A stretch of 64,000 bases of DNA from Gnetum montanum (lineage: Eukaryota > Plantae > Gnetophyta), in the NCBI GenBank assembly GCA_015680685.1, contig MNCI01002312.1:226655-290654 (forward strand), given 5' to 3'. Position numbers and translations under genes: made by a program. The number at the start of each line of letters is the position of its first letter. Position 1 is the first letter of the stretch. Below, one piece after another: positions 2,408 through 35,070 of the stretch. Under the pieces are notes generated by a model. It had not been told where the DNA came from, did not search any database, and saw only the letters and a list, made by a program, of their open reading frames with translations.

Positions 2408-2460
2408 TCTTCACTACTATCTAGATTTGAAAGTTAGAATATTTGAAACTACATTGTTTT

Positions 2461-4171: not shown

Positions 4172-4177
4172 GTTTTC

Positions 4178-8822: not shown

Positions 8823-9031
8823 TCGCTACAACCTAATCACATCAACTCACTACATCATTAATATCAAACACATATTAAATAAATGCAAAAGTCTATTCAT
8901 CACAATCTATGTAGCAAAATTTTTGTTTCATTTCATAGAAAAATAATAATACATCACATGATCATCTGCATTACATAGCAAGAATACAAAAAATACAAAA
9001 CACCTAATGATGGGGCTACATTAAGATCTAT

Positions 9032-12000: not shown

Positions 12001-13372
12001 ACTAGAGGAGAACACCCTCTAGATATAAATTTCAATATGTCCTAGTTGGCCCTAGAAAATAATGTCTTGGTGATAGCACCTACAGCCTCTACTGCTAAGT
12101 GTGACCACATAATCACACTAAAGTGCCATAGTGGGAATGCCAGGAACTTGGATGCCCTTGGCCAAAACCTTACTACTTGACAACCCACCTTCATATTTGA
12201 TGTAGGCATGTTGGACATAGGCTCGCTCATGCAACAAAGAATGCCAACAAGCTCCACAATGACTAAGATTGGCTTTAACAACACCTTGCGATCGCATAAA
12301 TGACAAATGTAGCGTTAATATACAATAGATGCATTTTGGAAAAAATACATTATGGTAAAAAATGGTGATAACCTTACCCTACGATGATGGCCTATGATCA
12401 CTGCTAATGTACATGGCCCCTTCCCACACTAGAAAATACTTAGATGAAAAAAAAATAGCATTAGGGGATAACCCCTACTATGAGACTTTCCTACCACAAG
12501 CCATCCTAGCTACCACTTATGTTCTCATCCCTACCCCTACTCTATGCTTGATGTAGAAATTTTTCCATGTGAACCCTTCAATGCTTCCCCACCCTACAAT
12601 GTGTCATTTGGCCACCACTGTAGCCCTAGACCCTATTGAGATTTTTAAAAAAATAAGAAAATAAGGTGAGTAGCAAAGGCTCACTGCATCCTAGCCCTAT
12701 AGGTGGTGGTCCTAAGGCCACCATAAGACCTCAATCTCTACCTTGCCCCACCTGTCACCTACTAGAACACCAAGCCTCATTTCCTGTGGCCACATCGGCT
12801 ACTACAGCAGCCATGGCTACTACAAAACATAAACCCTTTCCCCTATGGTCACTTTCATTAAGCACACATAAAAACCCTTTCCTTGCAGCAATACCAATTG
12901 TCATAGCAGTTGTGACCATCACAACTCAAACCCTTTCACTGTGCCCTCACCCAGTCAAAACCCTCACCCCACAAAACCCTTGTAAGAATCATGCAGTTTA
13001 TACTTGGTTGTGATAGCCCAAATGACCATGGTGGTGTTGTCCCTTATCATGGCAAGGTATAGACCAAAACCTAGCCCCAAGCTCCAAGTGCCTATGTATA
13101 GAAAGCCAAAAGAATGAAAATAATGAAAAAGGGGCAGAGCATAGTTGGAGTACCTAGCAGTCGGTGGTGCACTTTACTCCTTCACGCATGCCCATGGTAG
13201 GCTTCCTAGGACTCACCCTTCCTTGTCTACATTGACTAGGATAGGGTGCTAATGTCCACTTTAGTATGACATTCTAGCAACTACACTTTTACAACTATGC
13301 TATGCTCTCAAAATTTTGTATTTTCACCTTTAACAATGAAAAATTTCCCAAGGGTAAAACACGCTCTTATAC
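9032..13372 (-). pseudogene. Antisense multi-exon extra gene of element B (unknown protein; Transposase_32-like N-terminal half, coiled-coil C-terminal half)
   Basis: Minus-strand GT-AG introns at 9110-9202, 10010-10098, 10237-10330, 10553-10656 and 11722-11814. Exon peptides include LMELFLALSPSILV, VLEEGMRFNWAFFI and DVGPS|. Homologous to the copies in A and D. Confidence 0.8.
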
Positions 13373-13560
13373 CCTTGGGAACCACTTAATTTTTTACCCA
13401 CCCAAGACTATGCTCAATAGTGCAAAGCATAGTTGCATGTAAGTGTATTCACTAGAGTTAGGAAAATTTTGAATTTTTCTTATCACCCAATGACCAAAAA
13501 AGCTAGTTTTGCTTTTCTAATGCACCAAGCCTCACTCCAATGATGCACTAAGTGCACAAA

Positions 13561-14175
13561 ACCATCTACTATGGTGTTAAACTACCACCCAACAGTTTGT
13601 TAAGACGTTAAATTGGTGCTTCATAGCCCACCATGGCCTTAAACTGGCAACACATGGTCCAAAACGGCCCAAAACTAGCAACACACAAGGCCTGGAATGA
13701 GCTTAAACTGCTATTGTGGCTTGGAATGATCCAAAAGTATAGCTTTTTGCATTACTTTCCTTTCATTTGTGCATTAACTTTGTTAAAACAAGTGCCACTT
13801 GATGATGTTTTTCTAGTTGACTCTTGCAACATCTTGCATTGACAAAGCATGGATATGCATGCAACACCGTACCTCAGTAAAGCAAGGTAAGAACTCATCC
13901 ACCATGATGCTAAAACTAGCATAGTAGTCTACTTTGAGTATAAACTGGCATAGTATAGCTCATCTACAATGACACTATAATTAGCACACATAGTCTGCTA
14001 TGACTATAAACTAGCACAGATTGTCCTTGGGTCATGACATTAAACTACCACAAGAGCTTGTATGCCATGATGCTAAAATGGCACGCAGTAGTCTACTAGG
14101 ACTATAAACTAATGCACCATTATTTGCTAGGACCTTAAACTAGGTTCATAGTCTACTAGGACCTTAAACTAGCAT
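13561..14175 (+). repeat. Fused motif arrays 2 and 3 of element B (~15 copies) at the position where pol is missing
   Basis: Units CATCCACCATGATGCTAAAACTAGCA, ATAGTCTGCTATGACTATAAACTAGCA and TAGTCTACTAGGACCTTAAACTAGCA. Confidence 0.85.
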
Positions 14176-15342
14176 TTTCATAATTTTTCAACACTTGCCA
14201 TTGGTATGGCCTTTAGACAACTTGCAACATCATTATCCTCGACACTTTCACTAGCTTCCTAAGCACTTGCAACTGGCTCAGCCTTTTGAGCATTTGTAGC
14301 ATCTTTGTATCTAGCATTTGATTTTCATTTCATCTTTTGTGGTCTACTTGTCTTCTTAGAGTTTTGTTTGCAAAATGAAGCCTTAGAGGTGATCAAGCAA
14401 ATAAGTATCTCATCATAGAAGCAAGTCATCATATCGTTCCAATGTGCATGATTGAACTAGTTAAGCCACTCAAGAGTGCACATCCTCCTCATCCCATTAT
14501 AGCCTACACACATCCACTCCTTCATACTAATAGCCTCTCATCCCTGCATACTCATAATTACACATCCCTCAAATGCATATGCACTATGATGCATATGACA
14601 TTCTCTTCATGTCAACTATAGAACCTAAGGTAGACGTAACATAATTTGTCCTATGGAAAGCCTCTGTTGGCTGGTCAAAACCCAAGTAGATGTAACACAA
14701 CTCATCCTGGGGAGGAAATACCTATGCTACAGAAATGACGTGGTTGCATCAAAGAAAAGCCCATCTTGTGGTACATAGTCCACTCGATGGCCAACACCTT
14801 GTAAATAACATTTTGGAATGTGCGGAACCTGATGGAGGTTCATCCTATAGTAAAGAAAATAAGCAAAAGAAAAAAGAAAAAAAAAAGCAAAGAAAAGAAA
14901 AAGAGAATAGAAAAAGGAAAAGGGGAAAAAGCACTTCCCCAAGCAAATAGAAAACACTACAATTTCACAATTGATCCAACCCTAAATCCACATTGACCTT
15001 CTCATAAGCACTCTAATGAGAGGTCATAATTTTAGGGGTAAGCCATTCTAGTATCATGGAATTTGAGTCTCTCATAAGCATTCTGACAAGAGATTATCAT
15101 TTTGGAAACAAGCCACCCTGGTACCACATCTTATAGTATCACATTGTTTGCATTTCACTCTCTTATTATCTCCTAGCACATTCCTTACATCCTTTATACC
15201 CAACATACCATTACCCTTAACACTTTTGAGCATGGTGAAATGATATTTAGTTGAGTACTGACAAGTGATGTTGGTGCCAAGCCTATTATGGTGTTTTTCA
15301 TTCTTTGTTAACATCTCTTGGGCCACTCCTTCATATGTCAAC

Positions 15343-15351
15343 AAAGAGGGG
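15343..15351 (+). promoter_or_regulatory. Polypurine tract of element B
   Basis: AAAGAGGGG, 4 nt before the LTR start TGAAACACC. Confidence 0.8.
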
Positions 15352-15355
15352 CCAG

Positions 15356-15941
15356 TGAAACACCACCAAATTTGGGCTTCTAGGTCTTAACTACAAATTT
15401 GGCTAAGTCTTAAAACTGATAAATTTTTTCTAAGTGTTAAAAATATGCTCTCCACTAATTAAACTATGATCTAGAGCATAGTTAGCATAGTCTACATAAA
15501 TAGCCTAGATTTCCAAATTTTTCTAAGTGTTAGTAGAAACTACAAAATTTTTCTAAGTATTTTAACTACATTGTCCCTACTAGGACTACATTCTAGAGTG
15601 TATTCAACATAGTTAGCAGTAAAATGGCCAATGTTGCATGTTTTCCTTAGTGTTAAGCTAGAGGCTACTAAGCATGGTTTGGATGGAAGAAATAGTTTGG
15701 TAAAATTTCTCACTTCTAGCACTATGCTTCCTACTATGCTTCAAAGTGTAGCTAGCATAGTTAGCACTAAGGAAATCAATTTTACAAGTTTTTTCTAAGT
15801 GTTTGGGCTATGCTCTCCCTACCATGGCTATGCTCTCCTTTCCAAGAGTATTCTCTAAATTGTAGCTAGCATAGTCAACATTGAACCTCATTTTTTTCAA
15901 GATTTGTCTAACTACTGTACTACAATTTAGAGCATAGTTAG
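15356..15941 (+). repeat. 3' LTR of element B, left part (split by element A)
   Basis: Starts TGAAAC after the PPT. Homologous to 2461-3020. Confidence 0.85.
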
Positions 15942-17526
15942 TAAAACATCCCAAAAAATTCAAAGTCATTCTCGCTTTACTAGGCCTTACAATTCATGCA
16001 GCACTATGATAGTTCTTGAGGAGGAGAATGCTCTGAATTTAGGCTGGTTAGTTCAGAAAATTTTCTACATTAGGTGTAAACAGGCTCTACGGATCATCCT
16101 GCCTATTAACCTAAGTAGTTTTCCTAGCCAATAGCCTACTCAGAAATGGTGCGTGGAGTTGACAATAGTGCTCAAGATGCATGAAATAGTTCAACAAGTT
16201 TTCTAAGTCATGAAGTCTGCTATGCCACGTCATGCCCTGCTATGTAGTGTAGCAGGCTTCAGAAAACAATTGCAAGATGAAGTGCCACGCTACGCTACGC
16301 TATGCAGTGTAGCATAGCATGGCCACAACTATACAACCAAATCCATCGCCCAACTTCAAGTGATTCAACAATGTTCCTTTCCATCAGGAAGTGGTGGACC
16401 ATGTCTGTTGCTATGCTACATTGAGCTACATGATGCAGCGAGGCATAGCAATCCTGAGGAAGAGACAGAAGGAAGCTCAAAGGGCAGAATCAGCAAGTTC
16501 GCAAGTCTCACAACATAGGAAGCAAATTTTTCACATTGGCAAAGTTTTCACAACTAAGTCCAGTCACTACGCTATGCTACGCTACGTAGCATAGCAAGCA
16601 TGCAACACACATGTAGCAGAATGCACGACAAGATGCTACGCTACGTCAAGCATGTTGTGCCACAAAGCACAGCAAAGCATGCAGGTAGTTATGCAACATC
16701 AATATACTTTCCCTAATTGGACCATTGGCACATGTCTCCAGACGCTGACAATGCAATTATGGCATGGAAGGCTCACAGTTACAGCATAGCAGACTCGCAT
16801 TACAATGGTCATGCAGGTCCAATGGTCATACATGGCACGTGTGACACCAGTAAGTCAACATGGGCCCAGGGCACATGGCATCCAAACATCCCCTTTCATA
16901 TGCCCTTTAGCCCTATAAATGCCCCAATGAGCAATGCTCAAAGGGTTGGACTATCCCTTGATGTTCTAAGATAAGCATTGTAACATTGAGCATTGAGCAC
17001 TGTAAGCTTTCTATTTGACATTGCAAATAGTTAGCATTTTTAACTAGCATTTTGTTCTATCTCCCTTTCTACAACCTTGGTAGAAGTTTCACATTGTCAA
17101 CTTCCAAGTCCATGCCCAAGCACATAGCAGCTTTGCTCTACATGTCCTGGTTACTCTTAGGATCTCTACGCTCCCCAACATTGTGCAACTGACTATACCC
17201 ATCTCAACAGAGCAAGCTTGTAGCTTCAGAGTGGTGCACTTTTGTAACTACATTTTACTTTATTTCCTAGTTATTGTTGTGCTTCACATTACTTTCTGCT
17301 TCATTTACTTTTAAATATTACTTTGTGCTTTCATTCCCATTTTTAAATAATATGTTGCAAAAGGCTATATAGATGTCAATTAAGTCCCTGTCTAATCGAC
17401 CAGACTATTCAGGGTGCCCTGTATCTGCTCACACCCAGCATGGCCCTCCCATGAGTACTAGGTCAAGATTGTTGCACCCGTCAACCCCTCGGCATTTTCT
17501 AGCTGCTGATGTTTTTGGTCGATATA
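15942..17526 (+). repeat. 5' LTR of element A
   Basis: TAAAACATCCCAAAAAATTCAAAGTC...TTTTTGGTCGATATA, collinear with 32309-33903. TATAAAT at 16914. Confidence 0.92.
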
Positions 17527-17532
17527 GTTTTC

Positions 17533-17549
17533 TGGTGCTAGAAGAAGGG
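17533..17549 (+). promoter_or_regulatory. Primer binding site of element A (tRNA-Asn)
   Basis: TGGTGCTAGAAGAAGGG, 6 nt after the LTR end, as in element B. Confidence 0.8.
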
Positions 17550-17654
17550 CCTTTTGGTGCCTTTTCTGTGTGTCATAGTAGTTTTGTGAGCCTTCTGCAC
17601 CCTGATATGCATAAGCATAAATATGACATCCTCTTGCGGTTGTTTTTGCTTTGT

Positions 17655-18170
17655 GCAGTGTAGATTAGTCATCTCAATGGTTCCCCGGGAGCCCTATAGA
17701 ACACAAGACCTCTGATCGCCTGTTGACTAGCCTATCTTATGGTAGTCTTACATGTGTTCTGTACCTCATCGCATGTGGTATAGACCAATTGCCTCGACGG
17801 TTCCTATGAAACCCTGCAAGACATAAAGCCTTCTTGATTGCCAGTTAGCTTGCCCATCCTACGGTAGTCTTGCACGTGCTCTATACCCTATCGTGCACTA
17901 GCGTAAATGTGACACCATTTTGTAGTTGTTTACGCTTTGTGTGGTACAGGTCGGTCACTTCGACAATTCCTCCAGAACCCTATGAGACATAAAGTCTTCT
18001 TAATTTCCAGTTAACTAAACTTATTTTACAGTAGTCTTGCTTGCGCTCTGTACCCTATCATGCACTAGCGTAAACATGACACCCTTTCGCAGTTGTTTAC
18101 ACTTTGTGTAGTGCAGATGGGTCGCCTCGATGGTTCCTTGGGAATTCGGCAAGATGTGAAGCCTTTCTTT
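17655..18170 (+). repeat. Degenerate tandem repeat (~120-170 bp unit, ~3.5 copies) in the 5' UTR of A
   Basis: Recurring CCTCGAYGGTTCC...GACATAAAG...GTAGTCTTRCACGTG.TCTRTACCCTATCG blocks near 17660, 17780, 17945 and 18115. Confidence 0.7.
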
Positions 18171-18231
18171 TGCTGTTTTCCAGTTTCCTTGTGCTTTTTG
18201 CATTCTCTTTTGCATAACTACTTGCTTAACA

Positions 18232-21200
18232 ATGGCTCTTTCGAACACTACTGCTAATACCTTCAATGTTGAAGTTCCCATCACGGTTCAAGGCACTACT
18301 AGTGCCGAACAACACTGCACCAGACGTTGGAGACACGTCAATCTCTCAGAATCCAAAACCAAGAACCTAAGGGATTGGCCCAGCAACATGAGTGTTACAG
18401 CTTCCTCTACATGAAGGTGCAAGAAAATCTACCCTTAGACATACATGAACTCAAGGATAAACGTAGCTTCGAGTTCACTTACTACAATGGGAAGGAATTT
18501 GTTCCTACTCCCGGCATTTCTTTACCTTTGACACAGATAGACCAAAGGCTTATAGATTAACTAATCTAGTTGGCTATTCTTAGGGAGAAATAGGACACAA
18601 TGTCCAACCAAGATGAAGCCTTTCAAGATGGACAGGAGGAACTTGATTCCCAATCAGATGAGGGAGGTCCAACCAGCCCTGTTCCTATCCCTCCTACCCA
18701 GTCTTTCTGGGCTAAGCCATTGTCTATCACTACTCCCTTTGTGATTATGACTACATTTACACAACCCATGATTATGACTGCTATGGTTAGCCATGCTAAT
18801 CCCATGGTTTTTCAACACCCTCTCTCTCCTATTTTGCCTATTTTTTTGTAGCTACTATTCCTTTGCAAATTATTCAGCTATCTATTCCTGTAGCATACCA
18901 TATGCCAATCATGGCTACCCTACCACATGTTCATACAATGCCTAATTCACAATCATATGCGACTTCTTTTTCTATTCCTACATTCATGCCTATTCCACCC
19001 ATGGTGGTGGGCCCTATTTTCCTCTTTTCCTACCCCGCAACCATTGAAGATGTCTCACTACATCCATTCTCATGCATACCAAGCCTTGCAAATGGTACAA
19101 CCCAAAATGNCCCCCCCCCCCCCCAACTATTTACAACATTGTAGGGTTTGGACCAAGCATTCCAGCTCATCCAGACCCTCACAGAGGAAATAAAATGCCT
19201 CAAAGTTATTGGGTCTGACACAGTACAAGTCATGGACTTCTACCAAGATGACCCCATCAGCCTTGTAATTCTTGCTTTAACACTACCCCTAGGGATGTCT
19301 CTCCCACAATTCATGAAGTATGATGGAGAGGGAGATTCCAATGCACATCTTGTCACCTTTAGGTTTGAGTCTTTGCTATTACAACAATGGATGCACACAA
19401 TTATTTGCATCTTCACCATGTCCCTAGCTGGGAAAGCCTTGGATTGGTACCGCGTGTTGCCACGCTTATCCATTTCAACTATGGAAGAGCTGCTGATCTA
19501 ATTCATGATGCGCTTCAGGTACAAATTGAAGCCAAAAACCATGCTGGATTAGTTGATGAGTGTGAAGAAAGAAACTCTAGAGCCAATTCAGAAGTTCATT
19601 CAACGTTGGAGCGCAACCCTTAACAAAATCCGCGAACCCATCGTGGAGGCCCACCTGCTGGCCTTCTTTAAGGGTGTAGTGAACGACTTCATCATGTCTA
19701 AACTATACTACCTCACTCCTCACTCCCTTAGTCAGGATTTCGCTTAGACTAAGACAATATAAGATGCAGCTGAGGTAAGTAAAGACCCAGCCTACATCAC
19801 TTACAAAAATTCCTTCACAAAGAGGGACAAAGGCAAAGCCCTAACAACCATAGTGGTCATTGTGGCAACTGAGGTTAAGCCCAAACCTAGCAACAACGAT
19901 AGCAAGAACAAAAATAAACTGGCCATACTAGCGTCCAACCTCATGCCCAGACAAGGCCATGTGTCGCAACTTGCTATGCCTACAACTGAGACATTTGTAC
20001 AAACCAAACCCAACTTTGAGCGCAAAGACCACTCAAAGTACACCACATTTCCTCTCAAGCCTTTAGAGCTTCTGAAGCAACTGCTGGCAGTAGGATACAT
20101 CCAACATAAGCAGATGTCAGAAGAAGCAATCAAAAGGCAACAACATTATTGCAAACTCCTTAGAAGCCCCTCTTTGGCCCTGCCCAATGAGCCTCCAGTT
20201 CCTAGGGGTTTTAGGCTAGACAGGTTTTGTGACTACCACCAATAATGTGGTCATGACACGGATTACTGTTTGGCATTACAAGATGACATCCAAAGATTAA
20301 TTGACCAAGGGAAACTAGTGCTAGACGAAAGAAACCTAGTACATCCTAAAATCCAATCTATGCATGTCTACACAGATCCCCTCAATGCCAACAATTACGG
20401 TTATGTAATCAATGCCATCAGCATTAACAATGATCCAAGGTCACCCCAGTAGCCATTCATGGTCCATGTGCCTCAGCGTAGTGCACCAGCACCACAAGTG
20501 GCTAATCAAAGCTCGCAATAGCTTTTCATCCTAAAAGTTCCACCACGGGCATCCACCTTTGCACCACCTATCAACGAGGCCACATGGCCCCACCCAGTGA
20601 CACCTCTAGCTCCATTTGTCATTAGTGGGCCGATGCCCTCGACGGCCCCTATCTCACGTGAAATAGTTGAATAGCCTTCTTGCCCTACAAGGCGAGAATT
20701 CCACTTCACGGGTGAGCCATCAAGGGGAAATACCGTCAAAAGTACCCCCAAGCCTACTCCTTCACCCTTTGCATTGATGCCTTCACCACCAAAGAAAAAT
20801 GTCAACATGACCATGTAGCTTGCATCACTCTGCCAACAAGGATCTAAACCCAGATCCGAAGTCACCCCTCCTTGAGAAATTCGTCTTCTGGGATAAATAG
20901 AAGAGGAGGAAAGTGTCAAAAAAGGGGACGGCTAAGATCTCTTAGATGCCCTCACGCAGGTCAAACAAGCTCTAAAACAAAAAAAACACTACATTGAGTT
21001 TGTACAACCTAATCATGACATCCATCCTGCATTGCGAGGCTCTGATTTGCATGTTGACAATGATTCCGGTCAATGAAGACATTCTAGCAGAAGAAGAAGC
21101 AATCCACTCAGTCATGCTTCCTCCAGTACCTACAAGGTCAGAACAACCTCAACTAACCTTTTGCAGTGATGCCATTAGTGAAGATCCCAAAGGAGGTCAA

Positions 21201-21854
21201 GTGACTATGACACCCCTTTTCATCACAATTCGGGTGAGCCAACACCAGATCCGAATGGTACATGTTGATGATGGGGCTGCCATGAATGCCATCCCCTTTT
21301 CCATTGTAGAAAAGTTGGGCTTGGTCGACCAGATTAAACCCACAATGATGTCATGCCTAAGGTCATTCAATGGGACGCGAGTCATGGTAAAGAGCATAGT
21401 TCACATAAACTTCGTAGTAGGGGACCAATTCCCCACAAATGCAATGTTCATTGTAGTCAAGGAAATGCCCAGGTTCAACCTGATCTTGGGGAGATCATGG
21501 TTAGCACAACTTAGGGTTGTCTCCTCACCCATACACCAGGAACTCTACCTGCCTTACACAGGTAGAGAGGTGGTGATCCATGATGAAGAAGTAGCAATGC
21601 AAGCGATCCACAACGTAGGTGTGGAAAAAGGCTCAGAGGTCATAACTTCTAAGAATGAAGCACCTATTGTAACTTACACTGACTACTCGATAGAGGGGTC
21701 ATCTCAGCAAGTTGATCGCCAAGGTGAAAACACGTGGACTGAGTTACCCTTCCAAGTGGGAGGTAACAGTGTAGACAAAGGCCCTGGCAGAGTGCCTAAG
21801 CCTTACGTCTCACCCAATCCGCATCAAGTTAAGAAGCAGCTTCGCCTAACATAG
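18232..21854 (+). pseudogene. gag: Decayed gag-protease of element A
   Basis: Retrotrans_gag-type core PQFMKYDGEGDSNAHLVTF...ALDWY, zinc knuckle FCDYHQ*CGHDTDYC at ~20226, and aspartic protease VHVDDGAAMNAIP...FNLILGRSWL in ORF 20994-21854. Confidence 0.92.
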
Positions 21855-21899
21855 CAACTCCATTGCTTCTTGCCCACACACTACTCATGCTTCTACGCT

Positions 21900-22080
21900 A
21901 TGGCACGAAATGGCCTAAAACTAGCGATGTGCTTGAAATGGCCTAAAACTAGCAATGCTACGCGATGGCCCAAAATGGCCTAAAACTAGCATAAGTTACC
22001 AGTAAGCCCTTGTTCAAGTGGTTGACGCATCATTTCTTCGGCATGTTACACAATGGCATGAAATGGCCTAAAACTAGCAC
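21900..22080 (+). repeat. Motif array 1 of element A (4 copies)
   Basis: Four AAATGGCCTAAAACTAGC units, e.g. GGCC-CAAAAT-GGCC-TAAAAC-TAGCA. Confidence 0.85.
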
Positions 22081-22245
22081 ATGAAAGCATGAACACTTTA
22101 TACAAAAAGCATGTATGTAATACACAAGTTAGCGCAAAATCCTCTTACTTTTTCAAAACTGTTATCTTTCAATGTTTGCAAAATTCATTATACAAGATTG
22201 CAAAAAATCTAAAATTTCTAATTTTCAAAAAAAAAATCCATGCGA

Positions 22246-25200
22246 TTATGGGTTGTTTGCATCGTTTTTTCTTTGTGCTCCTACATCATTACCTTTGCTT
22301 GCTTTGTCCCTTGCTAACTCTTCATTTCCTCCCTCCATGGGCACTGCACCCTCACCTGGGGCCTGCATCGTAGGGGTGAGGTGGTCAGCTAGGGTAAAAA
22401 ACACAAACTACAACAGAGCATGAACATAAAATTAATGAGATAGAAAATGACTAACCTGAGAAGGGCCCACATCTATCTTGAAGGGTATCTAATCTAAACC
22501 AAGCCCGAGGTGACACCAGACCTCCTTTTCTGTGATATCTAGCCAACATCCTTTTCTTGGTGCAACATCTACTACATCAGCTCTCTCCCTTTCTATGAGT
22601 GTTCATCTTGGTGTCCCCGGAGAAAAGGACATGGTCACGGTCTTCCCTGCGGGAAGGCCACCTTCTAGCTAGGAGATTTTGTAACCTTGACCTGCTCTTT
22701 GAATCTAGTATAGACTTCAAAAGTGTTAATGGTATTTACAAATTCTTCATACGTAAATGCCTTCATAGCAGTGTCTTCGTATAACTTACGATGGGTGGAA
22801 TTTTCCTATTTATACATATATTTATGGTTTCTTTGCCTCTGCCCCCATTCATAAATCTTGGCACTGATGTCTCTTAGATCTTGATAATTCTGATCCAGTA
22901 GATCCATATGCATCTACTACTCTATTAGTTTGTGAGTAGTCTTGACATTCTGATGCACAACTATCCAAAATCAAGCGTGGTCTTCCATAGCTGGGCGCCA
23001 GTCCTCGTTGTTAGTGTCACGGGCCATGAGTAACTCGTTCCTCAACTTGAGATCCTCCACCTCAGTCCTCAAGTTAGCCTCCCTATACTTTGCCTTCTGA
23101 GATTATTTCCATAGCTCCTTGTTGGTATGCTTGCACTCCCACAGAGAGCATGTTGAGTGCAAAGCACATTTGTAGACCTTGTCGTATGCACGACGAGACA
23201 CCTCGGTTACTTCTGGTGGGAATGTGGACATAACACTAACTTTCAAAGATCATGTTGGGTCCCACTTGAGTCGAGAAGCTACCATGACACAAAGAACACA
23301 CCAATTGCATTAGCATAGAACAAGTTGAAAATGCAAGAAATTTTAGCATAACAACATGAGAGTAGATGACACTGCTACTTACCCGCTTCAAGGTCCACCT
23401 ACTAAAGGCAATTAATCATGTCATTAACAATCCCCTGCATAAACACAAATTTGTCAGGGATTTTATCCCAAGACCCTGTGTGAATCGGAGGGGGTCCCGC
23501 GACATCGTCAATAGCACCTGTTGTGTAACCAAACATGTTAGCAATGACCAAAATGGACTATGATAAGGTAGACATATTACCAAACTCACCAGCGTCCGGT
23601 TGCAGTCTCGCTTCCAGCTAATGCAAGATGATGGTAGAAGCCTAGCTAGAAGTTCCTCCCAGGTCCCTATGAACCTCTTCTTCATGTGCTGGTGCCTTTT
23701 CTTTCAAGAAACCAGAACCTTTTTAATTCAAGGGAGGCTCCTCCTCACCAGTAGGAGAGTTCTCCCTAATAATGAGAGCCCCTACCTTAATGGTAGGAGC
23801 TCTCCACCTTTCGACTAGGACCCTTCTCTCTGAGACTGGGGCCCCCGCATCTTCATTTGTCATCCCTATCCTAAGGGCTAACACCTCTTCGTCACCTTCT
23901 TCTACTTCCTCTTTTTCTTCTGATGATCAAAAAACATGTTTGCATTAGCTCAAAGCAATTTATCCTAAGGCAGATGCTACACTACGCTACGCCATCTAGC
24001 ATAGCATAGCGTAGTTGACTACAAAAAACTAAGCATTTAAGGGAAGTACTTACCAATAGGGGGTTTCATCCTATATAGTTTAAGCTACAGTCGTTGCCCC
24101 TCCCCTTCCCCCATGCGAAGGGTTTCCCTAATTGGAGGAGGCCTCTTTCGCTACAACTTGCTAGCCATAGTCTCAGCCATGAGACGTTCACCCTGCGATG
24201 CGCTACCGTCTATGATGAGGGGCCTCTCGCCCATGCTGTCCTAGCTGTGAACATTGTGGGCTACTCGATCCATCATCATTACAGAAAAAAAATCCTTGAT
24301 TATTTCTGGGGGATCCTAGGCTTGGATGGTTCAAAAAATCTGGTGAATCCAAGGTCTGGAAATCTGGTCACAATTTCGTACAACCCAACCTCCTTTCTCC
24401 TGAACCACCAAGAACTCCATGAAGCACTTAATATAGCCTATGTCGAAGGCATAATGGATGTTGGAACGGGACTCTGTTTTCTTACGGTGTCCCAAGATTT
24501 CAGCCCACAAGCCTTTACATAGGGACTCGACCCAGTTGTAACGAGTCCCTTCCTCCATAACCACATGCATTATCCAAGCCTACTCGAGCCCTCGGACCTT
24601 TCCCTAGGTGAGTAGTTGGGGGAATGAGTGAGCGTGGAAAGCAGGGTAAATCTCCTTGGTAGGTCCTTTTTTGAGCTTATCCATAGGAAGCCCCTTGCAC
24701 TCCTTGGTGAGCCCCAACCACTCTTGAATGTCCTTCCTCTAGAGGGTCAACTTGATCTCAGATTTCAACCCTATCGGAATGCCTTCGGTAGGGACACTAA
24801 AAAAATTCACAAACAACTGGTCATTGATGTCAATGACCACCCGCATGTCATGCACATGCAAGCGAAAGTAGCCCACCTTGTCGAAAAAGGATTCGACTAA
24901 GAAAACCATCTCGATGGTAGGAACACCCAAATTCGAGGCCAAGAATAGATCCATAAGCCCTCCTTTTCAATGTTCTAGACCAACGAATCTAAGGCTCCAT
25001 CACCATTCAACCAGCGTTGGTTCTTCGCTACTTCTCCATACTTGAAGTAGACATTCACCCGCTATGCCTCAACGGTTACCACCAACAGCCCCTGAGGTTC
25101 CTTTGGCCCTGAAACAGTTCCACAAAAAACATTTAGTGAAACATAAAAGAATTAAAAATGTGCAAAGACACTTAAGCATATGGAACTTACTGCTCGACCT

Positions 25201-26786
25201 ACTAGGTCGGTATGGCAATGGGAACTGCGGGAGGTTAACCAGAACTCGTTCAACCATGATTAATTTGAAGGGTTTCATCCACTCCCCATCCAACCAGCCC
25301 TACCCCTTGCACTGATTATAGAGGGGAGAATATACATCTGGGTAGGTGTGGTACTTGCCCCCGCATTAGACAATCACACCCACTCACAAGTTCTCAGTAG
25401 AAGAGAAATCCTGTAGGGCTAGTTGCACTATGGCCAATAGACTCGGTGTGTCATGAATCCCATCCTCGTCGATGAAGAACCTAGTAACAAACACAAACTA
25501 TTAGCATTAGACTGCTATGGCCAGCATCATACAAACACAGCAGAACAAGGCTGCAAAAAGAAAAAACTCATCTGCCAACACAATAGACAGTCCCTTGAGG
25601 GTTCTGAAAGCACGTCGTCATAAAACATGCGAGGAACAATGTGTTAAAACTGTGGTAGCAGCTATACTTAGGCATATCCTAGATCTAGGCCAAGTGCCTT
25701 AACCTTGTTGGGCGCTTACTGGATCCTTCTCCCTACCCACTCATGATTGCCCAATTGGTTAGAAACCTTAGAATGCCTCGGCTTACCCCAGGAAAAATGG
25801 GTTCTGTTATGCCGGCCTCCTCCTCCTCCTCTAGGGAGGACCAAATGATCATGCTAAAGTGGTCAAGGAGGAATTTTAGGAAGCCTTGTGCCCCTTTTCT
25901 GAACTAGACCTTGCTCTCCCATATGTATCTGGGGAGGATGAGAATTAGCCACAGGTCTGCTCAAAAGACACAGGACCCCTCTAATTTCCAAAACAATTAG
26001 CCTAGGCCTCAGTCCCTCCATGCACAACACAATTAGAAAATGTTAGCATCATATCTAAGGGAAATACATGCACAATGTAGCAACACCTAGCAATTCATGC
26101 ATATAGTGTAGCATAACCCTCTACCTGCACATAGCGTAGCAAGGGTGCGAAAGCCTAGAAAGAATATGCAAATAGTCTAGCATAGCAACAAAACAATTGA
26201 CACCATGCCCCAACAAAGCACGTGTCGCACCATTGCATCACACATGGCCTAGACCTCCTAAGGGTCCTACGTTATACCACACGAAGGTCAAGCAACTTAA
26301 ACTACCCCAACCCTCGCAGTTATGACAACCACGGTAGTGCCAGTTTCAGCAGCCTTGCATGCAACTACGACGTACTTTTTATGCATCTACCATGATCAAA
26401 ATGATGACAGTGGTGATGAAAAGGCCAAAATGATGTGACCACAAAAACACAACCAGCCAATAATGGACTCAAAAGCAATAGGACACAAAATAAAAGGCAA
26501 AGGAAACACAGTAACTTACTAGGTCAACAATGTGCTCTTCTACACTGCAACACGTTCTTGTGTCGCACACCCTAGGGTCTTCTTCACCTCCTCAACTTTT
26601 GCAAGCACCAAATAAATCTTAGGAGCCATTGTCCTCCTTGCATATTTACCCTCTTTGCTATAAAAAACTCACCTTGCTAGTCGTTGGCACAATTGCTTGG
26701 TGCTCCAAAATTGCCTTGTGCTCCGATGTGGGCTCTGCATTCTTACGATGAGAATGGAAAAATTTCCAGGGTTTAACCCCTATTTA
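22246..26786 (-). pseudogene. Antisense multi-exon extra gene of element A, located between PR and RT
   Basis: Minus-strand GT-AG introns at 22389-22455, 23279-23382, 23518-23589, 23920-24053 and 25109-25190, plus a first donor near 26519. Exon 22456-23278 reads in one frame for about 220 codons, interrupted only by stops consistent with C>T decay. Motifs GLMDLFLA, LVESFF and EEGTRYNW. Confidence 0.85.
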
Positions 26787-26787
26787 T
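26777..26787 (-). promoter_or_regulatory. Internal TATA-like promoter of the antisense gene in element A
   Basis: Minus strand CATAAATAGGGGTTAAACCCTGGAAATTTTTCCATT matches D 61269 TATAAATAGGGGATTACCCATGGTAATCTTGTCATT. Confidence 0.6.
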
Positions 26788-26967
26788 GGTTGTAATGATA
26801 AGATGGAAAAACTTGCTATTCTCTATCTCTAATTAATGTGGAGCACGTAGTACAACGTAGCATGCTTGTCATGACATCGTAGCACTATTAGCATTAAAGC
26901 CTTGACATGCTTCAAACCAACTGTTCGCTTTCCCAAAAACAAAAAAAATATATTTGTTTTCGTTACA

Positions 26968-27447
26968 AGTCTGAAAAGACCTTAAACTAGTAATCCTAGC
27001 AATCGTAGCATGACTAGTCAGAAAAGACCTTAAACTAGAAATCCTAGCATAGTTGCACCTCTAATGGTCTGAAAAGACCCTAAACTAGCAGTTTCAACCT
27101 ATCACGTTCACAGTCCGCAATGACGTTAAACTAACAATACCACATTCTTACATGGGTGGTTTTTGCATCTTCTTCCATATTGATAGTGTCACAAATTCTA
27201 GTAGTTTCATCTTTTCATGTCAACAATTTGTATTTTTGCGTTAACGCATACTTGCAGTTCCCCATTTCATTTTGCACATTAAGATCTCGCATGTTACAAG
27301 TTGGCAGTCCGGAATGACACTAAACTAGAAGTTTAGCATTTGCATATCAACAGTTTCACAACTTCACACTTTGCATCGGCAATTTTGCATCTTTAGCAGT
27401 CCTGCATTTTCATGCCTTGGTGGCCCACCATGACCTTAAAACTGGCA
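26968..27447 (+). repeat. Motif array 2 of element A (6 copies) upstream of pol
   Basis: GGTC-TGAAAA-GACC-CTAAAC-TAGCA, and GTCCGCAATGACGTTAAACTAAC at 27113-27135. Confidence 0.85.
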
Positions 27448-27583
27448 AACTTTCAATCTTTACATCATCTCACTTCATGAGTTGCATCACATCACTATTT
27501 TGCAAAATTTTTATTACAAAAAATCTTTCCGACAGATGCCCCTTAACCAGGCTTTTATCTTATGTTGGTAGGTCAAGCAAGAG

Positions 27584-30500
27584 ATGAAAATCCATCGTGA
27601 CCTTTGCACACCTTTAATGTTAGTAGGTCCATAGGGCAGACTTGTGAGATAGTTGGACCCCAACATGATCGATTGGGGTTTGACCACAACTAGCACCATA
27701 GCAACCTTAGAGGCATTCCCAAACTGGCCCGAGCATCTAGTCCAAACCCTAGAATTAGAGGTCAGGGATGTGGTCGAGGACTCTCTCTTTGAGAAACCTG
27801 TGACCATGCCGAAGGGGGAAGTGAAAACGCTAAAACTTAGTTTCCTCCTAGACACACAAATGCACAAAAACATAGCTAAGATTTTTCAAGACAACATCAG
27901 TCTCTTCACATGGCCATACAGTGACATGCTGAGTCTGGATCTGTGGCTAATTTAGCACGACATCATCCTAGACCCACACATGAAGATAGTCAAGCAAAAG
28001 ACCCGCAAGATTAAGCTGGAAATCGCACTAGCCGTGAGGGATGAAATCACCAAGCTATACGAAGCTGGTTTCATCTGCGTAGTTGATTACTTAGAGTGGG
28101 TGTCCAACATCGTTGTAGTTTCAAAGAAAATGGGAGGAATACGGATCTATATAGACTTCTGGGATTTGAACAAGGCAACGATCAAGGATAATGTCCCACT
28201 TCCAAGCATCGATTAGCTCATCGATACCACGACTGGTCATGCTCTGCTATCCTTCATGAATGGTTTCTCTAGATACAATCAAATCTGCATTAACCTAGGG
28301 CATCAGCTATCAACAACCTTCATGACCCCATGGGGGACCTTTTGCTACACCATGATGCCCTTCAGGCTCAAGAATGCTAGAGAAACCTACCAGCAAGCCA
28401 TGACTTACATTTTTAGCAACTATATCCTAGATACATTAAATGACTACGTGAATGATATAGCTGTCAAGTCCAAAGAGGTAGCTAATCACCCATGCGATCT
28501 AGAAGTAGTCCTCAAGCGCTACCAAATGCACGACTTATGTCTCAACCCTAAGAAGTGCATCTTCAGGGTGAAAATTAGATGCATGTTAGGGTTCATAGTA
28601 TCGAAGGCCAAAATAGGGGTAGACCTTGACAAAGTCAAGGCCATCATCAACCTGGCACCTCCCACAAACCTCAAGGATCTACATGGTTTGCAAGATAGGG
28701 TATAGTTCATTTGAAGGTTTATAGCAAGGTTGATCAACAAGTTACACCCCATGCAACATCTTCTAAAAAAAGGATTAACTTCGAGTGGACAACCCAGTGT
28801 TAACAAGCCTTCGACGACCTAAAGAAGGAACTCTCACACCTCTCGATTGTGCATCTACCACAAAAGAATAAACCCTTCTTTATCTACCTCGCCACCTCCA
28901 ACACATCTGTCATGACACTGCTATGTCAGAAATGAGATGATGGTTTTGAGATACCAGTGTATTATCTGAGCCACACACTAATAGCACACAAGGAAAAATA
29001 CAATGAAGTGGAGAGGAATTTCCTTCCCTTAGTGTTCACACTAAAAAAGTGATGGCATTACCTATTCCGCAGTATAGCCAACATCATTTGCAAAAGCAAT
29101 ATACTTCAGGCTATCACTAACAACCTATACGAAAGTAGCAAGATAGCCCGATGGAAGGTGATAACCATGGAGTTTGATTTAAACTATGTAAGTCAATCGT
29201 CAACGAAGGGTCAAGCCATAGCAACCCAACTCATAGCCTCACCAATTGATGACCAAGCAACCATAGACCCCAAATTTCTAGATGAGCACATTAGCAATAT
29301 TGACATTGTCCCATTGCATCTCGAAGCCACTCTACACTTCGACGGCGCCTCAACTGTGCAAGGAGGTAGTGCCGCTACCATCATCACATTCTCTTCTAGG
29401 GAAATACATTCATCTGCATATTGTTTTACGTTCCCTTACACCAACAATGTGGTAGAGTATGAGGGGTTACTCAGAGGCCTCTTAACTGACCGGGCACTGC
29501 ACATGCAACACCTGACAATCCAGGGAGATTTACAACTAGTTGTGCATCAAATCACTAAGGTCTACACCTACAAGGCTACACACCAGCAACCCTACTGCGA
29601 CCTAGAAAAAACCCTACTTAAGCAATTTTCAATCATAGATGTGCAACATGTGCCATGCAATGAGAACACCATGGCAGATGTCTTAGCTACCCTTGCATTA
29701 AACATTCTGTCACATTCCTTGGAAAACTTGCCAACTTCAATTATCGAATGTGCAGAGCCTATCACTCAGGTGGAACATGTGGCCTCTATCAGTGCTGCAG
29801 ATACCCAAGAGTGGTACACCCACATTAAAACCTACCTACAACATGGCGAACCCCCATATGAATTAACATCTACCCAGCGAGATGTAATCCGTAAGAGTGC
29901 CCGGCAATACGTGTTCATGGGAAATAATACCCTGTGCTGACATTCCTACTACGGGATATTTCTAGCATGCGTGGGTGGGGAGCAAGCATAGAAGGTAGTT
30001 AATGAGGTGCATGAGGGCTATGGCTGAAAAAAATTAGATGCCTAGAGTACTACTGGCCCCACATGGACTGTGACTGCCTAACAAAAGTCAAGACGTGTGA
30101 CATGTGCCAGAGATATGCAAATCTCATACACATAGCACCTGTAGACCTACATCCAATGCAAATCACGTGGCCCTTCCAATGATGGGGATTAGACCTCATA
30201 GGGCCTATCATGCCTAAGTCCTCCATAGGGCATAGTTTCATTATCACCACCACTGAGTACTTTACCAAGTGGGTGGAAGCTATCCCTTGGAGAAATATGA
30301 TGTCTTAGCAAATCTATCATTTCATCCTAGACAACATCGTAACCAGATTTGGGCTTCCAATGACTATTGTGACTGACAATGGGCCATAGTTTAGTAGCAT
30401 GGAAACCTGAACCTTCTACAAAAATCTAGGCATTAAGCAATCATTCTCTTCCCCCTATTATCCATAGGCGAATCGGTAGGTAGAGGCTACAAATAATTCC

Positions 30501-31025
30501 ATCATCAACTTGTTGAAGTAGATTCTTAACAACAGCAAGAGGCGGTGGCACGAGCAACTCCTCTACATTGTGTGGACCTACCAAACAATGTGCAGGACCA
30601 TGACAAGTAAGACTCCTTATAGCCTTGTTTATGGATCTAAAGCTGTGTTGCCTCTTGATTTGCAGGTACCATCACTCTGAATGATCCTCGCGAATGTTGT
30701 GAACGAAGCCCAGAACAATGAATTGTGGACCATCAACCTCAACTGAATAGAATAGGAGTGCACATAGATGCTGAGACACATCAAGCACTACCAAAGCAAG
30801 CAGTAGTAGAAGCACCATGTAGACCCGCATTGATGACCAGTGCAAAAGTGAGACCTCATCCTCAAGGCCATCTACAAGCATGTGAGAAAATTATCAGCCA
30901 ACTAGGAAGGTCCTTACGTGGTCACTAAAGCCTTCAGGAATGCAACCTTCAAGCTAGCGGACATGGAAGACAACGAGTTTGCCAAACCGGTGAATCACTC
31001 GTACCTTAAGACATACTACATCTGA
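27584..31025 (+). pseudogene. pol: Decayed pol of element A: RT, RNase H, archaeal-type RNase H, integrase
   Basis: RT: WVSNIVVV, DLNKA, FCYTMMPFRLKNA, YVNDI, LNPKKC. aRH: LHFDGAS...TNNVVEYEGL...GDLQLVV...ENTMADVLA. INT: WGLDLIGP, EYFTKWVEA, IVTDNG, EGPYVV. Confidence 0.95.
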
Positions 31026-31047
31026 AGCACAACAACAACCACCACCA

Positions 31048-31290
31048 TCTGCTAAGACAAACCGGTGCTACGAGCACCGTCCACAATGACATTAAACTAG
31101 TAGCATCGAGTAGCGTCCACAATGACGTTAAACTAGTGGCATCGAGCACCATCTGCTATGATGAAAACTTGGCATGGCTCATCCATTATGATGTTAAACT
31201 AGCATGTACAATCCGCTAGGACGTTAAAATGGTACAACATTTTGCTGGAACCTTAAACTAGCACATGGTCTACCAAGACCTTAAACTGGG
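31048..31290 (+). repeat. Motif array 3 of element A (~8 copies) directly after the pol stop
   Basis: CGTC-CACAAT-GACG-TTAAAC-TAGTG, CATC-CATTAT-GATG-TTAAAC-TAGCA and GGTC-TACCAA-GACC-TTAAAC-TGG. Confidence 0.88.
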
Positions 31291-31369
31291 TTCGCATTGC
31301 ATCCCTAGCATGCACCAACACTAGATACACATCGAACAAGCATGCATAGTGCTGATGTGTGGGTGGGAC

Positions 31370-31960
31370 GTCGTAACTGCAAAATGCGATTCATGATACA
31401 ATGGGAACACGGTCTAGAACATATGCAACACTACCATCCTTAGCATCATGCTGACCCTTCGTAGATGTCGTATGATGTCACACTGGCCCTCTGGACCTAC
31501 CATCGCCACAGCCCATCGCCCTGATGGTAGTTCCTTGGCTAGTTCCTGTAGCTGGAGTTCCAGTAGTATTGTGGCTTGGCCACAATATTATTATCCTCTA
31601 GCCCCTTGCCAACTCCTCAGCTCGCTCAATGTTTAGCTATGTTGTAGCTGATCCCATAGCTAAACTAAGAATGCATACCTTTGGCATGGATTCTAGAGCA
31701 TCTACACTCACAGCAACTCTCGATGCCTTCGAGGCTAGCTCCTCCATGCTGGTGCTATCAAGGCTGCTATTGGCCTTACTGCATTAGACATTTCACCCCA
31801 GTGACGATGCCCAATAGATTCAACAATGCCAATAGTCAACAAGACCTTTGCCCCCAAGGGCACAGCTTGCAACAGCAGCAAATGCTACTACATTGCGAAG
31901 CAAGTGCGTCGGCTTGCTCAACTACTTCAGAGTGCAAATTCCATGATGTGCATAACACAA
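31370..31960 (-). pseudogene. Second antisense ORF of element A (unknown protein)
   Basis: Minus-strand peptide GLEDNNIVAKPQYYWNSS...EGQCDIIRHLRRVS...LHMF*TVFP, conserved at the protein level with D 56040-56720. Confidence 0.65.
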
Positions 31961-32295
31961 CTCACTATATGGAAAGCATTTGTAGGCAGGTCAAAAGCTT
32001 TCACGGATGTAACACAACTCATTCTATGAAGGAAACAGCTATCCTACGAGAGGTTGAAGAACAACAATAGCTAAAGATGAAAATACGAACGAGCCCCTCA
32101 TGAGCACTCCGATGAGGGACTCTGCTAAACATCATCTTTTCTCTCTGCCTTAACCTTTGCAAAACCAATGCAACACTCTCAACTACAATGAAGCAATGCC
32201 TTGGCACTCACCAAGCGAAAACCTTGGCATTTTTCCTGCTGTGATGTTTCGTATTCTTTGTCAATGTTTAGCGAGCCCATTCTCTAGATGTTGAC

Positions 32296-32304
32296 AAAGA
32301 GGGG
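32296..32304 (+). promoter_or_regulatory. Polypurine tract of element A
   Basis: AAAGAGGGG, 4 nt before TGAAACACC. Confidence 0.85.
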
Positions 32305-32308
32305 TCAA

Positions 32309-33903
32309 TGAAACACCTCAAAAAATTCAAAGTCATTCTCTCTTCACCAAGCCTTGCAATTCGTGCAGCACCACGATAGTTCTTTAGGAGGAGAACACTC
32401 TGAATTTCGGCCGGCTAGTTTGGAAAATTTTCTACTTTAGGTGTAAATAGGCTCTACAGATCATCCTGCCTATCCACTTAAGTAGTTTTCCTAGCCAACA
32501 ACCTACTCAGAAATGGTGTGCAGAGCTGATAATAGCACTCAGGATGTGTGAAATAGTTTAGAAAGTTTTCTCAGTCACAAAGTCTACTACGCCACGCCAT
32601 GCCCCGCTATGTAGCATAGCAAGCTTCAGAAAACAATTGCAGGATAAATTTCCATGCTACGCTATGCTATGTAGCATAGCGTAGCATGGAAACAACTATA
32701 CAACTAGCTCCATCACCCAACTTCAAGTCCTTCAACAATGTCCCTTTCCGTTAGGAAGTGGTGGACCATATCTACTGCTATGCTATGTTGAGCTACATGG
32801 CACAACGAGGCATAGCAATCCTACTGAAGAGATAGAAGGTAGCTCAAAGGGTAGAATCAGCAAGTTCGCAAATCTCGCAACACAAGAAGCAAAGTTTGCA
32901 CATTGGCAAATTTTTCACGACTAAGGCCAGTCGCTACGCTATGCTACGCTACATAGCGTAGCATAGCATAGCAAGCATGCAACACACATGTAGTGGAACA
33001 CATGACAAGATTCTACGCTACTCCAAGCATGCTACGCCATAAAGCACAGAAAATCAAGTAGGTGGTTGTACGACATCAATGCACTTCACCTAATTGGACC
33101 GTTGGCACATGTCTCCAGACACTAACGGTGCAATTACGGCGTGGCAGGCTCATAGTTACAGCATAGCAGACTCGCATTACAACGGTCATGCAGGTCCAAC
33201 GGTCATACGTGGCACGTGTGCTGCTCGCAAGTCAACGTGGGCCCAGGGAATGTAGCATCCAAATGACCTCTTTCACATGCCCTTTAGCCCTATAAATACC
33301 CCAATGAGCAGTGCTCAAAGGGTTGGACTATCCCTTGATGCTCTAAGATAAGCATTGTAACATTGAGCATTGAGCATTCTAAGCTTTCGATTTGACACTG
33401 TAAATAGTTAGCATTTTTAGTTGGCATTTTTTTCTGTCTCCCTTTCTACCACCTTGGTAGAAGTTTCACATTGTCAGCTCCCAAGTCTATGCCCAAGCAC
33501 ATAACAGCTTTGCTCTACATGTCCTGGTTACTCTTGGGATCTCTGCACTCCCCAACGTTGTGCAACTGACTGTACCCATCGCAACAGAGCAAGCTTGTAG
33601 CTTCGGAGCGGTGCACTTTTCTAACTACATTTTACTTTATTTTTTGTTTATTGCTATGCTTTACATTACTTTCTGCTTCATTTACTTTTAAATATTATTT
33701 CGTGCTTTCATTTCTGTTTTCAAATTATATGTTGCAAAAGGCTATATAGACATCGATTAAGTCCCTATCTAATCATCTAGACTATTCAAGGCACCTCGTA
33801 TCCTCTCACACCTAGCATGGCCCTCCTACAGGTACGGGGTCGAGATTGTCGCACCCGCCAACCCCTTGGTGTTTTCCAGCCGTCAACGTTTTCGATCGCT
33901 ACA
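32309..33903 (+). repeat. 3' LTR of element A
   Basis: TG...CA termini (TGAAAC...GATCGCTACA), collinear with the 5' LTR. Confidence 0.93.
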
Positions 33904-35070
33904 AATAGCATAGTGAAGAAAAACTACTTCTATAATCCTTCAAAACTTAGCATTGACCTACATATCATCTCCAACATTCTTTCAATGAGCGAGATTAGCA
34001 ATTTTCACTTCTTTTGCACCCGCAATTTTTCCCTAAATTGTACCTATGCTCGACACCACTTGAGAGAGTAGATAGCATACTCCTAGAGTGTAGTCTCCAA
34101 AACTATACTATTTTTCATTATTTTCAAGTACATTGTAGTCTATTTGTCACTTGCACATGTAATCTTGGCAACATAGTCATGGTATAGCAACCTCACAAGG
34201 TCCATTGGAGCACACCAATGGAACACCATTTTGCTTCAGTAGGAGCATAGCTAGGGCTAGCATAGTCCCAACTATCCCTCTACCATGTGGTGCCTGATTT
34301 GTGACTCATGCTAATCCTAGCCCTATAAATACCCCAACACTTCATGTTTTAGGGGTTGGCATTTTGACTTTTCGATTGGAAAATCTCACATTCAATTGGT
34401 AAAATTTGAGCATTGGCATTCTTGTTACCCTTACACTTGAGCACACTTACCATTTTGGCAAACTTTGGGACATCGCCTACCACTGCTATTTGGGACACTG
34501 CCTACCATTGCTATACACTACCTAGCATATTGTACTCTAGCATAACTTGTAGGACACCACAACAACCAACCCAGTAGGCTTAGATCCTGTGGTAGATGTT
34601 AGTTCTTCATAGCTAGATACACTGAGACTATGACTATACTACCTACTATGCCTAATTGTACACTACATACCTCATAAACTTCTCTTTGTAGTTAACTATG
34701 CTCCCCCCATTTTGGGTGGTGCCTTTCTCTCTTACTCATATTTTATGGACTTTTCACATTTTCTCTTGCATTTTAGCATTCTACATGCATTTTTAATTAT
34801 TCAAGCACATATTCATGCATTAGCACCCTTTTTTAATGCCTAAAACCTCTACTATTGTTACACCTATGGGCACCGTAGACATCAAAAAACACCCCCCCCC
34901 TTGATACTTATTTCATTATAACACCTGTAAGTCCTAGTTTGATCATCGAGACCATTCTTGGCACCCTGCCTCCATTCCATGTAGGCCCTTATGTAGAAGT
35001 ATGATCAAGGCTATGTAATCATGGACCTCTTGGAGTACCATTCCAGCCTCTAACATTTTTGATCACTACA
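33904..35070 (+). repeat. 3' LTR of element B, right part
   Basis: Homologous to ~3020-4171. Ends GATCACTACA. Confidence 0.88.

Follow-up and report, generated by a model that had tools for sequence, protein, structure and literature searches.

Arrays of repeats resembling the hexaloop coremin RNA motif at open reading frame borders of Tat-clade LTR retrotransposons in Gnetum montanum

A 64,000-nt stretch of the Gnetum montanum genome (assembly GCA_015680685.1, contig MNCI01002312.1, positions 226,655 to 290,654 of the forward strand; hereafter the window, numbered from its first letter) contains several related long terminal repeat (LTR) retrotransposons of the Tat clade of Ty3/gypsy, in which a 23-nt unit recurs in clusters at the borders of open reading frames (ORFs). 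Our analysis supports the view that these repeats are copies of the hexaloop coremin, a small exonuclease-resistant RNA (xrRNA) motif of plant viruses, on the element-sense strand. The apparent novelty is that a known RNA motif is found in a new class of host, with an arrayed design at ORF borders. In active copies of the elements, the arrays probably served as roadblocks to 5'-3' exonucleases (and ribosomes), leaving protected 3' fragments that begin at these borders.

Motif copies and array positions

The unit was searched with an iterated position-weight profile, which detected 51 copies in the window versus none in each of five shuffled sequences. A lower threshold then added five, and the resulting 56 copies, located in eight clusters, constitute the set analyzed below. 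A covariance model trained on 54 copies recovered 58 in the window at E ≤ 1. The initial annotation of this DNA had reported about 60 clustered copies, always in element-sense orientation and with variable spacers, and these features are all reproduced: each of the 56 copies lies on the coding strand of its element (38 on the plus strand in elements A and B, 18 on the minus strand in element D), and the spacers do vary in length, the next unit beginning mostly 5-8 nt past position 22. Identity of the unit core between arrays is 0.78 versus 0.26-0.31 for the flanks, a contrast inflated by the fact that copies were chosen by profile. Even inside a single array, the spacers are near background while the core is kept.

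Element B has the most complete arrangement, with the order gag-protease (PR), stop, array 1, antisense ORF, array 2, reverse transcriptase (RT)-RNase H (RH)-archaeal-type RNase H (aRH)-integrase (INT) with its own ATG, stop, array 3, and LTR. Array 1 (21902..22078, plus strand) begins 48 nt past the gag-protease stop and comprises four units, all with a C-G second pair (GCC/GGC type). Array 2 (26968..27446, plus strand) has six units, four of which comply with the published coremin rules, and ends 137 nt ahead of the RT start codon. Array 3 (31078..31290, plus strand), with seven units, begins 53 nt past the integrase stop (31023-31025). Element D repeats this order from the antisense ORF onward: array 2 (60801..61045, minus strand; five units) ends 112 nt ahead of the RT start codon (60688), and array 3 (56803..57197, minus strand; 13 units) begins 41 nt past the integrase stop. 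Element A carries array 1 (8517..8820, plus strand; nine units) 221 nt past the end of its protease ORF, together with a fused array (13563..14173, plus strand) of 5+7 units (13563-13712 and 13926-14173) plus two weak ones.

The fused array has an upstream flank resembling that of array 2 and a downstream flank resembling that of array 3, and RT-integrase is missing, so element A looks like a deletion joining the two flanks. Such a deletion would be expected if the units promoted recombination, and the motif is sense-only, multi-copy and retained in this RT-less element; all of this would suit an RNA signal for Gag binding, packaging, dimerization or RT template switching rather than for decay. 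However, a deletion of this kind can be seeded by any repeat, and the motif and its variants are present in RNA viruses, phages and bacteria that have neither Gag nor RT, which makes such a signal an improbable explanation.

Agreement with coremin rules and position-specific constraint

[quoted passage not shown] Its requirements are a stem that pairs over at least 3 bp, a loop of the form YGAD or YGNNAD, the spacer A16-A20 and a second hairpin (PMC6546385, PMC10520033), the core of the hexaloop form being AACUA (PMC10520033). The natural hexaloop CGCAAU is resistant to Xrn1 in vitro in the BNYVV context, and CGAAAU is another loop that was tested and found resistant (PMC10520033). The unit at 27113..27135 (plus strand), whose letters match those quoted in the initial annotation, has exactly such a loop: a GTC/GAC stem encloses CGCAAT (27116-27121), followed by the spacer GTTAAACTA, and a 5-bp hairpin is predicted about 8 nt 3' of it. 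The six-nucleotide loop had been noted there as setting the repeats apart from the four-nucleotide coremin; the loop length is right, but it is no departure, as the hexaloop is a published functional variant (PMC10520033).

Compliance was examined with a scan that used only the published rules for hairpin 1, loop and core (hairpin 2 being left out), with 200 Markov-2 simulations as the null. It returned seven copies in the window, all in element-sense orientation, versus a simulated mean of 0.03 (maximum 1), and 17 versus 0.12 expected when G-to-A changes in the loop were allowed. Within the set of 56, hairpin 1 (at least 3 bp, with a pyrimidine-purine closing pair) is paired at all three positions in 33 copies, the YGNNAD loop is exact in 22, the core AACUA is exact at the fixed distance in 38, and seven keep all three. 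The loop starts with CG or its decay products in 51 of the 56 copies and ends in D in 53. Its first two bases are CG in 7, TG in 20, CA in 12, TA in 12 and others in 5, a spectrum that points to decay of an ancestral methylated CG. Most non-compliant copies differ by CpG decay, and most copies in the window are decayed relics.

The remaining variation follows the requirements of the viral motif. At the eight positions that published mutagenesis defines as essential, 0-5 of the 56 copies carry transversions per column, versus 6-18 at the five tolerant positions (exact p=0.0008). In the stem, 22 cells are changed on both sides versus 7.7 after shuffling, a value reached in 0 of 500 shuffles, and slid controls gave lower counts. 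Double changes occur in all four stem pairs, among copies that are related to each other; the C-G second pair is seen in no arrays other than A1, A2 and B1 and may represent one or two events. The same U-A to C-G change is the BNYVV mutant hp1.4, in which resistance was restored (PMC6546385). Viral contigs provide a cleaner, outside control of covariation, with 86 hits for the paired GCC/GGC form versus one for the unpaired GCC/GAC form.

These results bear on two further explanations. Family-specific tandem arrays with no assigned function are common in Ogre/Retand lineages (PMC6317226, PMC11963269), and most window copies are decayed, so the units might be neutral short tandem repeats that look like coremins by chance. 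That reading is already largely refuted by the covariation, the contrast of core and spacer, the seven compliant copies against 0.03 expected, and the constraint; in addition, one window copy matches viral copies and copies of other retroelements over 21 nt. We consider chance resemblance very improbable. Alternatively, the unit could act as DNA: either a host factor or the protein encoded by the antisense ORF would recognize the spaced palindrome GTC-N6-GAC, for instance upstream of an antisense promoter. The box CCCCTATTTAT (26777..26787), common to elements B and D (61280 in D), is TATA-like on the antisense strand and is inferred to be a putative antisense promoter; in B, array 2 begins about 180 nt beyond it, the distance in the two elements being about 180-240 nt, and the antisense proteins of Retand elements are predicted to bind DNA (PMC11963269). 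Little credence can be given to this role, however, because the motif is confined to one strand and has a tail that lacks symmetry, occurs in RNA viruses without a DNA stage, and shows constraint that tracks RNA mutagenesis data, and no such TATA-like box was found at arrays 1 or 3.

The assignment to the coremin/Box-1 type made in the initial annotation is thus supported by the hexaloop rule, covariation, position-specific constraint, and the near-identical motif behind stop codons of RNA viruses. In common with published hexaloop coremins, the units have a 3-4 bp hairpin, a YGNNAD loop and a UUAAACUA tail, share tolerated variants (C-G second pair, G-C fourth pair, U14A), and occur in tandem past stop codons and between ORFs. 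Unlike viral coremins, they reside in a nuclear LTR retrotransposon with 4-13 copies per cluster, usually have G at C21, and show no evident hairpin 2. Rfam gave no hit at the gathering threshold in the window, and at 26900-27500 its hits were all weak, with E values from 1.8 upward. The z-scores from whole-strand folding did not stand out, as is to be expected of a motif this small.

Predicted roadblock function and its alternatives

Units in active copies would fold into a small hairpin-plus-tail knot predicted to stop both scanning ribosomes and exonucleases that work 5'-to-3' (XRN4). Element RNA that has been decapped or sliced would be degraded from its 5' end up to an array, and three protected 3' pieces would be expected: one from after gag-protease, one from just ahead of the RT start codon, and one from within the 3' untranslated region (UTR). 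This fragment pattern would be analogous to those of viral intergenic and 3'-UTR xrRNAs. The pol fragment left by array 2 would be uncapped. The unspliced transcript, in which translation stops early and about 10 kb of tail follows, would be a decay target, which would favor such blocks, and multiple copies may buffer the function against CpG decay. The proposed job resembles that of the Class 3 plant-virus xrRNA (ST9a; PMC12397905), which is often intergenic and makes coding subgenomic RNAs; unlike the window motif, that xrRNA is larger and differently folded, and the available text of PMC12397905 mentions neither coremin nor retroelements.

Six RNA-seq runs, ordinary rather than degradome libraries, contributed 48-1083 reads per run, mostly less than 90% alike and at a depth of 0-20. 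They indicate that the family is transcribed at a low level, and an intact unit, GGCC-CGAAAT-GGCC, is present in reads from related copies (two reads; seven in a loose end). For 26600-30900, no RNA data set was among the matches listed. DNA joints between arrays that appeared in Logan contigs were rejected as deletions: their sides are only 20-24 nt long, and the joints were attributed to cross-mapping of the motif.

Several observations weigh against an exonuclease roadblock, in addition to the profile-based selection of copies and the restricted occurrence of the C-G pair mentioned above. Only 7 of the 56 copies in these old elements still satisfy the hairpin-1, loop and core rules. Position A20 is G in 15 of the 56 and C21 is G in 44 of the 56; neither substitution is among the mutants in the main text of the published coremin mutagenesis, C21 is partly required in BNYVV, and all four bases are found at position 21 among viral copies. 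A final loop C, which is inactive in vitro, occurs in 85 viral hits, so the D rule is not strict in nature. Hairpin 2 is essential to Xrn1 stalling in BNYVV (PMC6546385), and the best hairpin downstream of window units averages -2.95 versus -1.97 kcal/mol for shuffled sequence, in a test that barely separates RNA viruses themselves (-4.98 versus -3.42 for shuffled). In BNYVV, two extra bases before hairpin 2 nearly abolished stalling (PMC6546385); the 5-8 nt spacing to the next unit is unlike this tight arrangement. No pile-up of read ends at the arrays was seen in the six ordinary, low-depth RNA runs, which derive from related copies. The related element E (43446-46345) was without an array in motif scans, so not every related element keeps the motif; likewise, no array was found near the truncated element C in these scans. 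Moreover, the motif occurs in bacteria and phages, as described below. We take the Arabidopsis element EVD to be a copia element and hence of a different type. Loss of XRN4 changed nothing for EVD (PMC8892269).

The same fold could instead have a mainly translational task, blocking ribosomes that scan or re-initiate past the gag-protease stop and before the RT start, with RT-integrase made only from an Ogre-type spliced RNA lacking arrays 1 and 2. Hexaloop coremins block scanning ribosomes as well as or better than the wild type (PMC10520033), the protease-RT gap is bounded by arrays 1 and 2, and in Ogre elements this gap is an intron that some of the transcripts lose by splicing (PMC6317226). 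Element B has, between array 2 and the RT ATG, a U-rich tract, a TAG/G acceptor-like site (27569-27572) and the RT start codon (27584) within 27555..27586 (plus strand), and the site and ATG are laid out alike in D (60704 and 60688). However, array 3, past the last stop, is left unexplained, no conserved donor site was found in the element comparison, and no protease-to-RT joint was among the splice joints listed for the six low-depth RNA runs. A chiefly translational role therefore seems rather unlikely to us, and it should be noted that decay roadblocks and ribosome blocks can coexist. Coremin-type motifs can also stimulate frameshifting (PMC10321173); this was dismissed after inspection by eye, since the window arrays are outside ORFs and L065, one of the retroelement loci described below, has no suitably spaced slippery heptamer.

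Occurrence in other hosts and anatomy of the window elements

Matches to a pattern derived from the window were collected from at least 116 metagenome loci (about 300 estimated), at least 120 viral loci (about 190 estimated) and 47 prokaryote (GTDB) loci. Since these loci were chosen by pattern, they match at the fixed positions by construction; their placement is not subject to this limit. Upstream ORFs were scanned for 49 of the 80 flanked metagenome loci, and further ORFs were added afterwards. Among loci with flanks, a sense stop (ORF of at least 200 codons) precedes the motif by no more than 60 nt in 17 of the 37 distinct viral loci and in 13 of the 71 distinct metagenome loci, versus 0 in the antisense mirror, and the GCC variant follows a sense stop (ORF of at least 150 codons) in 29 versus 2 mirror cases, of 60. 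Many of the stop-proximal loci carry RdRP or capsid genes and are RNA viruses. Two or more co-oriented copies are present in 20 of the 116 metagenome loci.

Besides RNA viruses, retroelement domains were identified in L007, L008, L013, L039, L042, L044 and L065, in L055 by tblastn, and weakly in L074, and L071 is 73-78% like L008. The RTs of these unrelated retroelements are 19-34% identical to those of B and D where aligned, and no RT relatives were found in the viral contigs. The motif lies 12 nt past the integrase ORF in L008, about 190 nt past pol in L042 and L055, and after integrase/pol in L071, follows gag in L007 and L074, and is 5' of gag (the first ORF) in L039. In L065 it is situated between the gag-protease ORF and RT, 51 nt ahead of the first in-frame ATG, in parallel with array 2; in L013 and L044, of the same clade, it is also ahead of the RT domain, with in-frame ATGs upstream of it as well. 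L181, initially considered a retroelement on account of a zinc-knuckle hit, was dropped because its ORFs look RNA-viral; the mean for other retroelements in the downstream-hairpin comparison still includes it.

The coremin knot might tentatively be regarded as a near-universal RNA roadblock that has been adopted repeatedly by LTR retrotransposons of plants and other eukaryotes; where gag-protease is cut off from RT-integrase, host 5'-3' decay would produce a stable non-coding RNA from the 3' end as well as a separate pol RNA of subgenomic size. If true, the Gag:Pol ratio would be set in a virus-like manner that differs from splicing, read-through and frameshifting, and some of the repeat arrays in Ogre/Tat elements that lack an explanation would gain a function. 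More generally, if high-copy nuclear retroelements carry coremins, the number of nuclease roadblocks encoded by large plant genomes would be very great. Transposon life cycles would then be tied to XRN4/RDR6 competition, and internal repeat arrays, described in the Retand survey as being of unknown origin and function (PMC11963269), would have a role open to testing. The natural variants collected here also constrain coremin structure. The initial annotation knew of no such report for LTR retrotransposons, and our literature search likewise found none for a coremin in any retroelement among the matches listed (titles and abstract openings, with subscription papers, figures and bioRxiv supplements outside the search); the literature found describes natural xrRNAs solely in viruses. 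Four 8-mers taken from the motif were all absent from the supplements of the Retand survey (PMC11963269).

The GTDB prokaryote set was intended as a negative control and failed as such, with 47 loci; of its 39 distinct hits, 35 have C in common where Y leaves a free choice. To our knowledge, bacteria and phages lack Xrn1, so the general role of the motif may be wider or different. Phytoplasma genomes contain many dispersed copies, 11 of them in Ca. Phytoplasma rubi (phytoplasma loci: L119, L124, L129-L131, L137, L140, L142, L145, L147-L149, L151, L154, L155, L162 and L163). In CPR and other bacteria (L139, L143, L159, L161), the motif precedes same-strand tRNA-Gln or tRNA-Leu genes by about 17-23 nt, and it is further off from tRNA genes in L125, L146 and L160. 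At L135:297-322, it directly follows GTGC, making GTGCG, ahead of a group II intron domain match; we take GTGCG to be the start of a group II intron, and the motif may be the 5' hairpin of that intron. An overlap with a GP20-b match in L126 (35.4 bits, threshold 36.2) was discarded, as it rests mostly on downstream sequence and misfits the motif stem.

Among viral-type contigs, the motif at L029:940-961 is 24 nt past a circovirus-type capsid ORF, on a contig with a partial MISL RNA match. In tombus-like RNA viruses, matches to the lariat-capping ribozyme GIR1 follow the motif at L059:2405-2599, L068:2190-2347 and L003:2360-2543 (53.5, 37.9 and 21 bits, respectively; threshold 100). All three come after the replicase ORF, and those of L003 and L068 also precede a second ORF; such a GIR1-like element could provide a subgenomic RNA with a cap. 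Outside the window, the largest arrays, with 4-13 co-oriented units and no identifiable ORF, are in L009, L010, L021, L023, L075 and L079, the last with a CpG-decay pattern resembling that of the window.

The anatomy of the window elements was derived from self-comparison and tblastn, and their domains from Pfam. Element B (15937..33903, plus strand) is an 18-kb LTR-to-LTR Tat-clade Ty3/gypsy element with decayed ORFs and LTRs at about 15937-17526 and 32304-33903 (85% alike). It is nested within the 3' LTR of element A (2440..35070, plus strand; left end approximate), which has LTRs 77% alike, gag-protease and the antisense ORF. Element D (55306..64000, minus strand) is partial and runs off the window, comprising the antisense ORF, array 2, RT-INT and array 3; its DNA is 65% identical to that of B across RT-INT. 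The first ORF of B (18303..21854, plus strand) contains an aspartic protease (PF13975, below the curated cut-off) behind a gag-like region without a Pfam hit, which by its position we presume to be gag. The RT-RH-aRH-INT region of B (27584..31025, plus strand) is decayed, with aRH between RH and INT. Remnants of the antisense extra ORF (23416..25953, minus strand) are located between protease and RT, with homologs in A (10374-11611) and D (about 62594-64000); neither a Pfam family nor a homolog was found for it in Pfam and protein searches.

The gag-PR-RT-RH-INT order with an extra aRH is that of the Tat clade, and the position of aRH between RH and INT places the family on the Ogre/Retand side (PMC6317226). 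This placement and the CpG decay pattern suggest a plant host whose genome is methylated. Other features in common with Ogre/Retand elements are the separation of gag-protease from RT-RH-INT, an acceptor-like site before RT, an antisense extra ORF, and internal short-repeat arrays (PMC6317226, PMC11963269). Unlike in Ogre, where it averages 274 bp (PMC6317226), the protease-RT gap of B spans about 5.7 kb (21854-27584) and holds the antisense ORF; unlike in Retand, where the TRP28 ORF lies between pol and the 3' LTR (PMC11963269), the antisense ORF is between PR and RT and has no Pfam hit. This layout was not found described in the available texts on Ogre or Retand. In contrast to published Ogre/Retand arrays, which are family-specific and have no function assigned, the window repeats are a recognizable structured RNA motif.

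Two features unrelated to the motif were also observed. A decayed RT-RNase H remnant at 51200-53400 (minus strand), presumably Ty1/copia-like, is visible in translation and has neither a Pfam hit nor the motif. Other tandem repeats, with periods of 136, about 167 and 120 nt, occupy 2560-2935, 15585-15836, 17574-18165 and 61944-62303, in or near LTRs and within element D.
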